DNA of 64,000 nucleotides. It comes from Candidatus Bathyarchaeota archaeon (GTDB lineage Archaea > Thermoproteota > Bathyarchaeia > TCS64). A program made the position numbers. Shown one piece after another: positions 39,001 through 42,000 of this stretch. Location: the NCBI GenBank assembly GCA_963771885.1, contig CAVYVF010000002.1, forward strand, positions 128,001 through 192,000. Reading direction: 5' to 3'. Within the stretch, counting starts at the first letter, position 1; every line of letters starts with the position of its first letter.

Positions 39001-42000
39001 GCATTACCTTCCACCTGGACAGCACACGCCTACCATCCCCTGAACAATTAAGGATTAGGATCAGCACCGTACTCGTCTCGAAGTGCAGCATCCTGGGCAC
39101 GAACGTGACCGCACCCCGTTCACGCTGCCCACACTCGGTAAAGGTGGGATTAGCATAATGGGGCGAGAACTAGATGATATGCGTCTGAATAAGTAGGGTG
39201 ATCTTCGGGATCTAGTTTGCGATGATAGACTCCGTCTTTAAGATGTCCCTCGTCTTCTCGAAATAGCCTAGCACCGACTCCCCCTTCTCGGTTATCCCAT
39301 AAAGGTTCTTCGAGCGGCCATCCTTTCCCTCGTCTAAGGCCACGATAAGGGCCTCCTTCTCCAAGGAGCCGAGTATCTGCATGAGGGGCTTCCAGGAAAG
39401 GTTTGTAGCATACATTATTCGTGTCGGCCGTGGCTCGCCATCCCGTATGGTTGTTAGGACTGCGAGATAGATCTCAATCTTGGCGCGCCGAGTCGTCATG
39501 TTTCTTGCCCATGTCTTCTGTAAATAAATCAAATGCGGAGCACTAATACTGATTAGTTAACCTCGTTTAGACGAGGATAAAATAAAAATAAAAATAAGAA
39601 TCGTCTCTTTGAAGGATAATATTGCCGGTAAATATCAATTTTACTGCTTTCTGTGAAGACCTGGCATCTCGCCACGCTTCTTAAACTGAGCATGTTCCGT
39701 TTCAGCTCACGTTTGCGAGGATCAAAATGACATCCGCACGCGCAGCTAATTGATAATGCAAAATGGTCTTCTCATAATGAAACACTATACTATGCGATCG
39801 GTACTTTGATCGAATCCATAGTTGGTTTTTCCGTGAGTTCTCTTAAAGCCTCAAATAACGCAGATATATCGAGCGGTTTCTCCAGTACATAGTCAAAGAC
39901 TTTTACAGAAGTTGGGTGCATTATTATCTTATAACCTGTAACTAGAATCAGGTGAATATCAGGGTTAATACCTTTAATCAACTTAGCCAGTTCATCACCC
40001 TGATAATATGGCATAACATAGTCTAAAATCGCCACAGTATGTTTCTGAGCTTTTACCCTATCCAAAGCCTCGAGTCCATGTCTTGCCACATCAATTGAGT
40101 AGCCCTTATTCCACAATATTTGACTCAATACATTGACTGAGTCCCAATCATCATCAACTAAGAGGACGGAACCTTTCGACATGCCTCTTTATTATTTCAA
40201 CTATTATTAACAGTGATGGATTTTTAATAGATATTATTTTATAAAAATTGTAGATGATGTAATAGCGCAGCGTAGAGATCCAAACAAACCATCTAATTGA
40301 ATTAATGTATATCATTACAGTATGATTAACAAGCTTAGAGTCAACCCCGAATACGTTGATTCTTAAGAGACTCTATGCTTGAAAAACACTCAGACTCACC
40401 CCACCCGCCATCATTCCGCCTCTTAACACACTCTGCGTACAATCTCTCAAGGAGTGTCTCTCTATCAACTCCTACCGTTCTCAAAGCCTCATCGAGGGCA
40501 TCCACTGCCCCGTCGTAATACAACTTCAGTGTCTTTTCGTAGTGGGGATCAAGGTTCTCACTCTCCCCCTTCCACTCGAAGCTAGTCTCATACTTGTATA
40601 CGGCTATGGCAGTTATGTAGACTCCCCATTTGGATGCGAGGCAGTCAACTTTCTCTTTCCCTTCGAGTAGTTCGCATGCCTGCGATAAACAGCGGGCTTC
40701 TTTAATGTAGGAACCTAGCTCATGGTGTGCCGCTGCGGCCTTTCTGAAGAGAGCTATTCTCTGTTGGTCGTCTATGGCTTGCGCCGCTTGATCCTCGTAG
40801 AGCCTAGCCAACTCGAAGCGGTTACCCGAAGTCTCCGTGGTGTCTGATTCTTCCACAGTGTATTACTTATGCAACTCATCTAAATAACCAATTTCTATCA
40901 AGACGCTCCTTAAAAGTGGCGTAAAAACACCACGCGTGCGCAACTAGTTCAAGGGTCTAACAGACCGTGGAGGGTAATACTTCTTTGTCCCTCGAATCGT
41001 CTTCAACGCACCAAGAATTTGATCGTCCCGCTTTTCAGATTCTGTTAATGGTCTATACCCTTTCTTCGCATCTTTCATCTTCATCAATTAGTCAACTCCA
41101 TTAATCTTTTTTTGAGGGAAATTTAGAACCTCTACACGCACCCGCGCATTTGGGGGGTGCCCAGGCGAGATTACCTCGCTGAACCCCGCTTTGGCGTTGT
41201 CAACTGGGGAGTGCAGAAATCTCAACCAGCCAAAGCCAGTCAAGCTCCTTTACAGTCCACTCCTCAAGGCTCCGCGGCTTTCAGGTCTTACACTGCTTCG
41301 ACCTTTCGTCCGCTCCCACCTGGACAAATGCAATCAATGCCGCCAGGATATAAGCGCATTCCATTGTTCTCAGCTATCAACTAATGATTTTTCAGCCTAT
41401 AATAATGCCCCTACATGCGCTGTATCAAGCAAATCTCAATCGAGGTCTAAATACGTCAAAATATTGTATCCCTTAGCACGATATCTTATTGACGCGTTTA
41501 AGAATAATGAAATTCATAGAGCAGTAAAGACGTTAGTCCTTTGACTTCCTCTTAGCTTTCCCAATCTCTTCCTGAGCCTTCCCCTCGAGTTGCTCAATCT
41601 TACCCTTAAGCTGCTCAGTCTTATTATCAGTAATTTTCCCAATTTCCTCACGAATCTGGCCCTTGATCTTCTTTCCTCTACCCTCAAATTCAGCATCGCT
41701 CATATCGGTAACTTTACCCACATTCTCTTGAACAGTCCCCTCCGCCTGCTCAAGTTTGCCCTTGAGCTGCTCCGTCTTATTATCCGTGATTTTGCCTACT
41801 TCTTCACGGATCTGGCCCTTGAGTTTCTTCGCTCTACCTTCAACTTCGTCTTTGTTCATGTTTGCAGGATAAGAAGCGCGGTTTATAAATGAAGGCAGAT
41901 AGAAGAGGACCCGCAATTTTGACTATGTTGAATTTTTTATATTTAATCACGCATAGATTTTTTTAATTATTTTGGGGTAAGGGTTTATCTTTATGATTTT

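Follow-up and report, generated by a model that had tools for sequence, protein, structure and literature searches.

A multi-copy family of compact, pseudoknotted Y-shaped RNA genes in uncultivated Bathyarchaeia

Bathyarchaeia are abundant uncultivated archaea of sediment and soil whose RNA biology is almost uncharted. In a 64-kb stretch of a genome of this group (the window, to which the coordinates below refer unless a contig is named), the genome-wide survey's note had described an intergenic sequence as one of several copies of a structured small RNA, which raises the question of whether these copies are RNA genes in their own right, what fold they share and what they do. The copy described there (copy A) had been placed correctly: its core, a medium form that measures 168 nt when counted from the 5' G up to the final paired A, occupies 41158..41325 on the minus strand according to covariance model R1 (183.8 bits), a column-to-coordinate map and pair counts. 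A second copy in the window (copy B), also a medium form on the minus strand, has a core of 167 nt at 44474..44640 (R1 194.1 bits, same map) that is 87% identical to that of copy A. The genome contains four copies in total, and the remaining two, on contigs C23 and C2, have the same core; copies of one genome are 60-87% identical to each other. Across the family, RNA length ranges from 136 to 215 nt and falls into three size classes (short, medium and long) with a common pseudoknotted core. The data support the view that this is a previously undescribed multi-copy family of structured non-coding RNA genes of uncultivated Bathyarchaeia.

The RNA is compact and Y-shaped, with two arms on a closing helix. 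The closing helix P1 pairs the 5' with the 3' end (in copy A, 41315-41326 with 41158-41169; all copy A and B features given here are on the minus strand). Arm 1 consists of P2 (41310-41313 with 41274-41277), an internal loop, P3 (41300-41303 with 41284-41287) and a loop of 12 nt. Arm 2 comprises P4a (41266-41270 with 41173-41177), P4 (41258-41263 with 41208-41213) and P5 (41235-41244 with 41221-41230), in this order, and carries an invariant G-U-containing hairpin (GGCUUWGGCU); the strands of the junction are purine-rich and almost invariant. In addition, copy A has a peripheral helix, P6 (41194-41203 with 41180-41189), which is variable and belongs to an insertion confined to the genus of the window. 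The survey's note had this helix missing in about half of the members; it is in fact absent in more, namely 57 of 86.

The closing helix and the arms had been recognized before, but a pseudoknot had been overlooked that takes over part of the three-way branch predicted at that time. It comprises five base pairs between the 12-nt loop of P3 (41292..41296 in copy A) and the strand directly past the 5' strand of P4 (41252..41256); the corresponding strands of copy B are 44607-44611 and 44567-44571. The copy A strands follow from the top mutual-information pair outside the helices, from pair counts and from the coordinate map. When 86 members were aligned with a model lacking the pseudoknot, 96.5% of its cells were paired and all five pairs showed double changes. 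In an unfitted alignment, 98.6% were paired and three of the five pairs had changed on both sides, and the 19 medium forms paired in 95 of 95 cells. The pseudoknot locks the two arms together.

Covariation in the helices had been open to the objection that an alignment fitted to the model favours the structure, but it survived when no model guided the alignment. With 57 short forms aligned by MAFFT alone, paired cells amounted to 97.4% (29-45% with slid partners), and 14 of 27 pairs showed double changes in 169 cells, a number reached by none of 500 shuffles (51.6 ± 11.5). Among the 86 distinct members aligned with the model, 38 of 53 pairs showed double changes. The minus strand folds better than the plus strand, as had been claimed, with consensus energies of −63.35 and −38.8 kcal/mol for the alignment; for a single sequence, the minus strand gave −70.9 kcal/mol (z −2.15), whereas the plus strand gave −54.2 kcal/mol (z 0.04). 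Together with these energies, the presence of 546 G-U versus 129 A-C cells among 4276 fixes the strand.

The TATA-like box noted upstream of the RNA turned out to be a feature of all five genera in which the family occurs: a TATA/BRE-like, promoter-like element lies at the canonical distance, leaving about 24 nt between its end and the 5' G. Within −40 to −19, a window with at least 6 of 7 A/T is present in 67 of 85 copies, and the other 18 have CTTATAC, GATATAC or similar sequences. In copy A, the promoter-like block (41348..41366) combines a BRE-like ...ATGGAAY... with a TATA-like TTATAT, stops some 23 nt short of the 5' G at 41325 and is 80-99% conserved across the copies of the genus; the block of copy B lies at 44663-44681, and its sequence is unique to these two copies in this genome. 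Sequence is conserved from the start (UUUG-CCC) through the 3' tail (CAC, pyrimidines, AUUUU). Most copies have a terminator-like T-run right after P1: 49 of 85 copies have a T4 run no more than 20 nt downstream, and 71 of 85 have T3 or TTNTT.

The extent given in the survey's note was too short, since conservation at the level of the genus continues about 150 nt further upstream. In the genus of the window, this region includes a conserved, unstructured, non-coding module of 130 nt. The conservation profile of copy A resolves it into the boxes U1 (41458-41470), U2 (41415-41432) and U3 (41373-41384), which together span 41373..41470. Promoter block and module of copy B cover 44663..44785, with U3 at 44688-44699, U2 at 44730-44747 and U1 at 44773-44785. 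In 24 sequences of the module, RNAalifold found no consensus pair; each of the 24 has stop codons in every sense frame, and any given antisense frame is open in at most 3 of them. Nor is the module a regulon motif: within this genome, copies A and B are the only places where U2, U3 and the promoter block recur, and the many matches of box U1 are at chance level. We propose that the module is a DNA-level regulatory region, and its short dyads, which lie in U2 and U3, might allow a transcription factor to control medium and long paralogues separately in this genus.

The statement that no RNA run was available proved to be wrong, as RNA-library runs exist. Contigs flanked by adapters on both sides cover just the core: 41188-41325 in library X18, 41189-41311 in X17 and 41186-41285 in X20. 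In X18, the contig ends at the predicted 5' G, beyond which it has two more letters (GG as read on the RNA strand); not one of the 86 members carries these letters at that place. These contigs are assembled and come from relatives at 80-99% identity; they reveal neither strand nor abundance, and DNA may be present in RNA libraries. The flanks are also covered by low-depth X16 contigs and by X17 record 6, so that read-through or DNA is possible; furthermore, 41012-41175 is covered by an X17 contig, and the stretch from the CsbD-like gene to 41401 by X18 contigs. In the three libraries, a contig end recurs at 41186-41189; this is about 30 nt short of the predicted 3' end and is not explained by a simple full-length RNA. 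Positions 41176-41185 are uncovered in X17, X18 and X20, a gap that carries no weight as evidence. We conclude that the RNA is probably transcribed.

Orthologous copies keep their neighbours in stable synteny, whereas the neighbours of paralogues differ; the copies are paralogues that keep stable positions on the chromosome. No neighbouring or downstream gene family recurs among the 172 flanking ORFs scanned at 48 loci. Copies A and B are located in a CsbD/two-component 'stress island'. Opposite-strand ORFs of 71-124 amino acids overlap many copies; they were rejected as genes, as the lengths of members differ by non-multiples of three and by single-base indels and the ORFs have no Pfam hits. 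The antisense strand is pyrimidine-rich and therefore naturally poor in stop codons. That the copies are independent small RNA genes and not leaders, as the survey's note had held, is backed by the promoter-like box at canonical distance, the covariation in the unfitted alignment, the lack of a recurrent neighbour, the stable synteny and the RNA contigs confined to the core. We regard it as almost certain that this is a real, independent structured RNA gene.

How far does the family reach? We searched the 79 genomes of the order with our own covariance model, seeded by a plain MAFFT alignment of 19 sequences. It found the RNA in 51 genomes, one more than the 50 reported before, and bore out its presence in 5 of 15 genera with 1-5 matches per genome; all five positive genera belong to one family. 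The BLASTN matches in 12 of 17 congeners were reproduced as well. One match outside the family (genome G171, 28.6 bits) lacks most of P1, P4 and P5 and was not counted as a member. A GTDB-wide motif scan gave 52 sites confirmed by the covariance model among 80 listed loci, and 50 of these 52 were titled Bathyarchaeia or Bathyarchaeota; the bacterial pattern matches, 28 of the 80 listed loci, were without model confirmation and were discarded. A pattern that recovers 65 of the 86 known members had no match in viral contigs, and BLASTN had none in phages and plasmids. The listed DNA runs contain at most 0.30 of the sampled words. The reported absence of an Rfam 15 family held even at a permissive threshold: at E ≤ 10, window positions 40000-46000 gave five hits at chance level (best E 0.78), which score 14-21 bits compared with gathering scores of 39-80. 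In the Bathyarchaeia literature open to full-text search, which lies outside the subscription journals, there was no account of such an RNA.

Several known RNAs share features with this one. Like 5S rRNA, it is a Y-shaped RNA of similar size with an end-to-end closing helix and a stand-alone gene; 5S rRNA has a closing helix and two arms in the same order, with a first-arm loop of about 12 nt. The three-helix-junction topology with two arms is present in our consensus folds and resembles that of 5S rRNA. Unlike 5S rRNA, this RNA has an inter-arm pseudoknot, exists as 1-5 diverged paralogues and is limited to one archaeal family; 5S rRNA is not known to have a pseudoknot of this kind. At E ≤ 1, the only match of RF00001 in this genome was the canonical 5S rRNA (70.7 bits, C23:77713-77832); it missed all four copies, and these gave no alignment with the 5S rRNA of the same genome. 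Y RNAs and bacterial YrlA are small Ro60-bound RNAs with several paralogues, whose ends form a long stem and which have a U-rich tail. Our RNA resembles them in being a small RNA with several paralogues, a long end stem and a U-rich tail; however, Ro60 (TROVE, PF05731) is encoded in only 1 of 79 genomes, compared with 51 of 79 for the RNA, and no rsr or rtcB neighbourhood was found in the ORFs flanking the 48 loci. With raiA, OLE and ROOL, orphan structured RNA classes of bacteria found by comparative genomics, the family has in common covariation, pseudoknots, invariant unpaired purines, an own transcription unit and a function on which the genomic context is silent; it differs in being archaeal, multi-copy and far narrower in distribution.

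Other classes were compared as well. The box C and box D motifs that mark C/D box sRNAs are RUGAUGA and CUGA, and box C occurs in 0 of 85 members. An ACA like that of H/ACA sRNAs was found within 12 nt of the match's 3' end in 4 of 85 members, and the closing helix encloses all hairpins. SRP RNA and RNase P RNA have canonical copies elsewhere (C23:4201-4512, 132.2 bits, and C23:455651-455945, 184.9 bits). A riboswitch or other cis-acting leader is not indicated, as no downstream family recurs among the 172 flanking ORFs and a T-run follows P1 in most copies. As to a circular RNA excised at a bulge-helix-bulge motif, the consensus P1 is an uninterrupted helix that lacks the two 3-nt bulges, and no back-splice joint on the element was found in the RNA contigs, which drop rare forms and are weak evidence here. 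By eye, we recognized no convincing K-turn in the P2/P3 internal loop or the junction, and no Sm-site or other known protein-binding motif. To summarize, the RNA is not a Y RNA, 5S rRNA, guide RNA or leader.

What does the RNA do? It probably acts in trans. Among the possible modes of action, a protein-bound RNA appears most likely because the fold is conserved and locked, the hairpin and junction purines are invariant, and there is no long exposed conserved strand, variable guide or conserved downstream gene. We tentatively prefer such a ribonucleoprotein (RNP) to a ligand-binding, catalytic or base-pairing RNA, at somewhat less than an even chance. The RNA would then be the scaffold or the decoy of an RNP, with the partner protein encoded elsewhere. 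Against this reading, no partner gene recurs beside the RNA in the scanned flanks, and no protein-binding motif was seen by eye; moreover, aptamers and ribozymes just as typically show a compact junction with a pseudoknot and invariant purines. A trans-acting orphan aptamer or ribozyme, in which the pseudoknot-locked junction purines form a pocket, would fit both this architecture and the near-invariant unpaired G and A residues of junction and loops, and the fragment end recurring in three libraries could mark specific cleavage. This end is not a family-wide catalytic site, because it lies inside the peripheral helix that most members lack, and the absence of an Rfam riboswitch or ribozyme match, of an expression platform and of a conserved downstream gene makes the aptamer or ribozyme rather unlikely. 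A 5S-like paralogue that binds or titrates the 5S-binding ribosomal proteins is quite improbable: helix order and arm layout match those of 5S rRNA, but RF00001 misses all four copies, sequence similarity to the genome's own 5S is absent and the pseudoknot sets the RNA apart.

A base-pairing sRNA that acts on mRNAs, for example via the strands of P1, is improbable, although it has a specific candidate pairing. The P1 5' strand contains the 8-nt CAGGUGGG, which is exactly complementary to CCCACCUG, part of a promoter/leader motif near several copies; this motif lies within about 700 nt at 7 of 30 loci (8 hits, all co-oriented with the RNA gene) and, in this genome, precedes two start codons by 9 and 31 nt, and the RNA gene is an independent promoter-to-terminator unit. 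However, the complementary bases are buried in a closing helix of 9-12 bp, and the only exposed well-conserved stretches are a 4-nt loop and the pseudoknotted bases. In addition, P1 varies between genera without a matching motif seen downstream in those genera, and the motif is absent beside both copies in the window. For a cis-acting element, be it the leader of the gene that follows or a structured or processed 3' UTR of the gene that precedes, copy A provides some evidence: the claim that no same-strand gene lies at leader distance was wrong here, as an ORF of 44-46 amino acids, conserved in three species, begins about 70 nt downstream. Both copies in the window lie behind small genes of the same orientation, and RNA-library contigs cover 41012-41175 (X17) and the stretch from the CsbD-like gene to 41401 (X18). 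Yet the small ORF has a paralogue at another place on contig C2 that keeps the ORF upstream region without the RNA, other RNA paralogues have unrelated neighbours, often in divergent or convergent orientation, and the RNA is preceded by a promoter-like box in all genera and mostly followed by a T-run, so that a cis element is very improbable. The suspicion of a mobile-element RNA, raised in the survey's note, found no support beyond the multiple copies themselves and one long-form copy (L029) downstream of a TnpB gene. The omega RNAs of TnpB/IscB are likewise multi-copy, structured, 150-250 nt long and pseudoknotted, but OrfB_IS605 or Cas12f1-like TNB domains occur at 1 of 48 loci, neither end of the RNA has a variable guide segment, copies within the genome are 60-87% alike, orthologue synteny is kept, and there were no viral, phage or plasmid matches. 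A mobile-element RNA, whether of the omega or guide type, a MITE or some other remnant of a domesticated transposon, is thus the least probable of these explanations. Taken as a whole, our reading of the family as independent genes for a compact, pseudoknotted Y-shaped RNA that acts in trans, most likely bound to a protein, has, in our judgement, about an even chance of being right.

It is unlikely that the RNA is the subunit of a lineage-specific RNP without counterpart elsewhere, or the founder of a new archaeal class of trans-acting aptamers or ribozymes. In one version, such an RNP would be a Y-shaped decoy resembling 5S rRNA that captures ribosomal or other RNA-binding proteins; paralogues with their own upstream control module would then be switched on under different stresses. 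Few well-supported classes of structured non-coding RNA are known to be specific to Archaea. The immediate reach of the finding is limited, as the family-level range is narrow and the function is not evident. Nevertheless, the covariation is strong enough for structure determination, and the addition of the RNA to RNA family databases would stop the misreading of its loci as spurious antisense ORFs. Its partner or ligand, once found, would reveal lineage-specific cellular machinery or regulation.

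The two copies of the RNA in the window lie on the minus strand and are 87% identical across the core; copy A spans 41158-41325 and copy B 44474-44640. Two further, more diverged copies are located elsewhere in this genome, on contigs C23 and C2. All four, including the two in the window, had been claimed in the genome-wide survey's note and were found again with our own covariance model, for which 19 medium-length copies were aligned by MAFFT alone and the structure was taken from the RNAalifold consensus. This model gave full-length matches, one to five per genome, in 51 of the 79 genomes of the order, all in one family and 5 of 15 genera (g1, 16/17 genomes; g3, 4/5; g4, 1/1; g8, 1/1; g12, 28/32), in good agreement with the earlier figures of 50 genomes, five genera and one to five copies. 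By BLASTN, the RNA core was detected in 15 of the 79 genomes, among them 12 of 17 congeners, the same congener count as reported before. An even sample of the class contained a covariance match in 18 of 151 genomes; a lone match outside the family (28.6 bits) aligned without most of helices P1, P4 and P5 and was not counted as a member.

A motif scan of GTDB (one genome per species) with a pattern that recovers 65 of the 86 known members yielded at least 118 stretches. Among the 80 matches listed, the covariance model confirmed 52, of which 50 are titled Candidatus Bathyarchaeia or Bathyarchaeota and one 'uncultured archaeon'; the 28 unconfirmed sites among the matches listed are all bacterial and were dismissed as chance pattern matches. 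One confirmed member (65.3 bits) lies on a 5410-base contig, L143, from a MAG whose public title is a bacterial family. Despite this title, the genome stands among Bathyarchaeia in the genome set used, and the mismatch probably stems from mislabelling or misbinning. The same pattern, at its recovery of 65/86, found zero sites in 2.9 million viral contigs, and phage and plasmid collections gave no BLASTN match to the RNA. Members occur in three size classes that differ by one peripheral helix, P6 (helix 7 of the earlier description): short forms of 136-150 nt (57/85 members) in all five genera, and medium forms of 164-176 nt (20/85) and long forms of 207-215 nt (8/85) in the window's genus only. 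P6 is empty in 57 of the 86 rows of the alignment, so that it is missing from two-thirds of the family and not from about half, as previously stated.

Because the alignment behind the earlier pair counts had been fitted to its model, we realigned the 57 short forms by MAFFT alone and predicted the structure afresh by RNAalifold. Support from compensatory changes persisted: 14 of 27 pairs changed on both sides, and standard pairs were formed in 97.4% of 1538 cells, compared with 29-45% when partners were slid. In this alignment, the middle three pairs of the closing helix P1 alternate freely between G-C and A-U. Double-change cells numbered 169 versus 51.6 ± 11.5 in shuffles (reached by 0/500) in the unfitted alignment and 485 versus 158.6 ± 20.4 when the 86 distinct members were aligned to the model, where 38 of 53 pairs showed double changes; such shuffle statistics are inflated by relatedness, whereas the controls with slid partners and the variety of independent pair types are free of that effect.

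When mutual information was scanned across the alignment of 86 members, one pair outside the helices ranked among the highest, being A-U in 43 members and C-G in 35. This pair belongs to a 5-bp pseudoknot helix between 5'-G-M-A-G-Y in the 12-nt loop of arm 1 (P2 and P3) and 5'-G-C-U-K-C directly past the 5' half of P4 in arm 2. In the unfitted alignment, 98.6% of its cells were paired, with changes on both sides in 3/5 pairs. The 86 members gave 96.5% paired cells (5-54% when slid), double changes in 5/5 pairs and 44 double-change cells versus 17.8 ± 2.5 in shuffles (0/500), and in the 19 medium forms 95/95 cells were paired. Since the covariance model did not contain the pseudoknot helix, this support does not stem from fitting. 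Two sequence blocks that had looked like invariant purine-rich loops are explained by the pseudoknot. It also takes the place of the weakest part of the predicted branch, namely helix 6 of the model together with the upper end of helix 5, which are only 81-86% paired. The RNA is a compact, pseudoknotted, three-way-junction molecule.

The minus strand had been proposed as the better folder, and both individual and consensus energies agree with this. For copy A, it reached -70.9 kcal/mol (z -2.15, matched by 5/200 shuffles), whereas the plus strand, at -54.2 kcal/mol (z 0.04), folded no better than its own shuffles. Consensus energies were -63.35 kcal/mol for the given strand versus -38.8 for the complement, and -31.09 versus -14.99 kcal/mol for the short forms; the 4276 paired cells include 546 G-U/U-G and 129 A-C/C-A.

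The TATA-like box noted upstream of the RNA has an equivalent in all five genera: an A/T-rich box ends some 23-25 nt upstream of the G in UUUG/CCC, which is the canonical archaeal TATA-to-start distance. An ...AAC... block lies about 10 nt further upstream and a TTG block near -58, again in all five genera. A window of at least 6/7 A/T at -40 to -19 was present in 67/85 copies, and the remaining 18, almost all of them medium or long, carry CTTATAC, GATATAC or similar. Conservation in the window's genus continues for some 150 nt beyond the RNA on its upstream side. This AT-rich upstream module, common to the medium and long paralogues, lies on the minus strand at 41373-41470 (copy A) and 44688-44785 (copy B). 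Its three conserved boxes, U1, U2 and U3, are found at about -165 (GACGCAATWWATC), at -128 to -105 (including the dyad GCTG-ATA-CAGC) and at -75 to -55 (GCTA-ATTGA-TAGC); at the stringency used, U2 and U3 plus the promoter block occur in this genome at RNA copies only. The module has 0 consensus pairs in 24 sequences, and an ORF was rejected, as stops occur in every sense frame (24/24) and no antisense frame is open in more than 3/24. Its most plausible role is regulation at the DNA level, as a region through which a transcription factor would act.

Several congeners carry a motif of about 40 nt, CAATAGYCTTATCC...CCACCTGATACTCAAC, at most about 700 nt from the RNA gene and co-oriented in 8/8 cases (L003:1327-1342(+), L007:1428-1443(-), L011:2034-2049(+), L019:1842-1857(-), L024:774-789(+), L027:1269-1284(+), L028:728-743(+) and L028:1418-1433(+), by locus). 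In the genome studied here it lies at C2:27112-27127(-) and C2:27919-27934(-), 9 and 31 nt ahead of two gene starts. The motif often precedes an ORF beginning MVDLAEIQA, and CCCACCUG within it is the exact complement of 8 nt in the 5' strand of the RNA closing helix. In appearance it resembles a promoter or a short leader.

At the other end, most copies continue immediately past P1 with CAC, pyrimidines and (C)AUUUU; a T4 run follows within 20 nt in 49/85 copies, and T3 or TTNTT in 71/85. The T-run is absent from copies A and B and the copy A orthologues; copy A has an additional purine-pyrimidine hairpin and then a weaker T-rich stretch.

Contrary to the earlier statement that no RNA run was listed, RNA-library runs exist, and contigs of four of them match the copy A region. 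They were compared as Logan contigs (likeness ≥80%), which carry neither strand nor level, derive from relatives, and come from RNA libraries that may contain DNA. Short contigs with adapters on both sides were confined to the RNA core: 41188-41325 in set X18 (depth 5.5), 41189-41311 in X17 (depth 5.7), 41186-41285 in X20 (depth 11.4) and four shorter X17 pieces inside 41186-41307. Such adapter read-through indicates short inserts, as a small RNA would give. The X18 contig ends exactly at 41325, the predicted RNA start, beyond which two further letters (GG on the RNA strand) precede the adapter; GG stands at those positions in 0/86 members and appears to be non-templated. Judged by the adapter order in X17, read 1 is of the plus strand, which would mean a minus-strand RNA if the library is of the usual stranded design. 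Low-depth contigs also cover the flanks (X16, 41110-41260 and 41268-41414; X17, 41012-41175; X18, 41401-41545). In X17, X18 and X20, three libraries from three studies, contigs end with adapter directly attached at 41186-41189, a point within the apical stem of P6 and about 30 nt short of the predicted 3' end; this could be a processing site, a fragmentation hot spot or a priming artefact. The RNA genes are probably transcribed.

Copy A is preceded by a CsbD-like gene (41533-41916, minus) and copy B by a 70-aa acidic ORF; copy B is convergent with a hybrid histidine kinase (43144-44361, plus). The region around both copies (37576-48454) is a stress and signalling gene cluster with the CsbD-like protein, two receiver-domain proteins/response regulators, a Rieske protein, a LURP-one-related protein, PadR-like and other winged-helix regulators, and small charged proteins with apolipoprotein-like low-complexity matches. 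A Pfam survey of 172 flanking ORFs at 48 loci revealed no family common to different paralogue groups. Among orthologous copies, the neighbours stay the same (CxxCxxCC-RNA-Yip1, SGL-RNA-GNAT, TsaD/flavin reductase-RNA, Band_7/BacA, ThiS/ferredoxin). In one congener, a TnpB gene (OrfB_IS605 and Cas12f1-like TNB; L029:1960-3105(-)) lies immediately upstream of a long-form copy; TnpB adjoins the RNA at 1/48 loci and is probably a chance neighbour.

The claim that no same-strand gene follows at leader distance fails for copy A: a 46-aa ORF with GGAG before its start (40941-41078, minus) begins about 70 nt downstream. ORFs of 44-46 aa (MKxKDxKKGYRxLTESEKR...GTKKYYP) are conserved at the protein level after copy A orthologues in two other species. 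Since a paralogue on C2 (~33350-33455, minus) shares the ORF upstream region with no RNA preceding it, we regard the ORF as a separate gene. Antisense ORFs of 71-124 aa overlap many RNA copies; their length differences are not multiples of three, they contain single-base indels and they have no Pfam match, and we conclude that they are compositional. The view of the RNA as an independent sRNA gene family is upheld by its own promoter-like box, the RNA-library contigs on the core and the stable sites of its paralogues.

As before, no Rfam 15 family matched: a permissive scan of 40000-46000 gave five chance-level matches (best E 0.78), far below gathering scores. The canonical SRP RNA, RNase P RNA and 5S rRNA genes sit elsewhere in the genome. 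The Y topology is common to the RNA and 5S rRNA, but none of the four copies matched the 5S model at E ≤ 1 or resembled the genome's own 5S, so that this is a resemblance and not membership. Y RNAs were rejected, as Ro60 (TROVE) occurs in only 1/79 genomes of the order; this sole Ro60-like gene lies in a 549-aa open frame (G035:C137:14777-15664(-), 72.9 bits). Box C was found in 0/85 members and a 3' ACA in 4/85, and there is no guide segment, because both RNA ends are conserved.

The RNA would act in trans. Conservation falls on a locked tertiary fold, on an invariant hairpin that bears G-U and on the purines of the junction, and not on any long exposed strand, which makes a protein-bound RNA more likely than a base-pairing sRNA; the main rival is a trans-acting aptamer or ribozyme. 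As a protein-bound RNA, it would serve as an RNP scaffold or decoy. Full-text literature searches, with subscription journals outside their coverage, did not find such an RNA in Bathyarchaeia. With a reach limited by its narrow range, this independent gene family, with paralogues at stable sites, is rated as a new RNA class.
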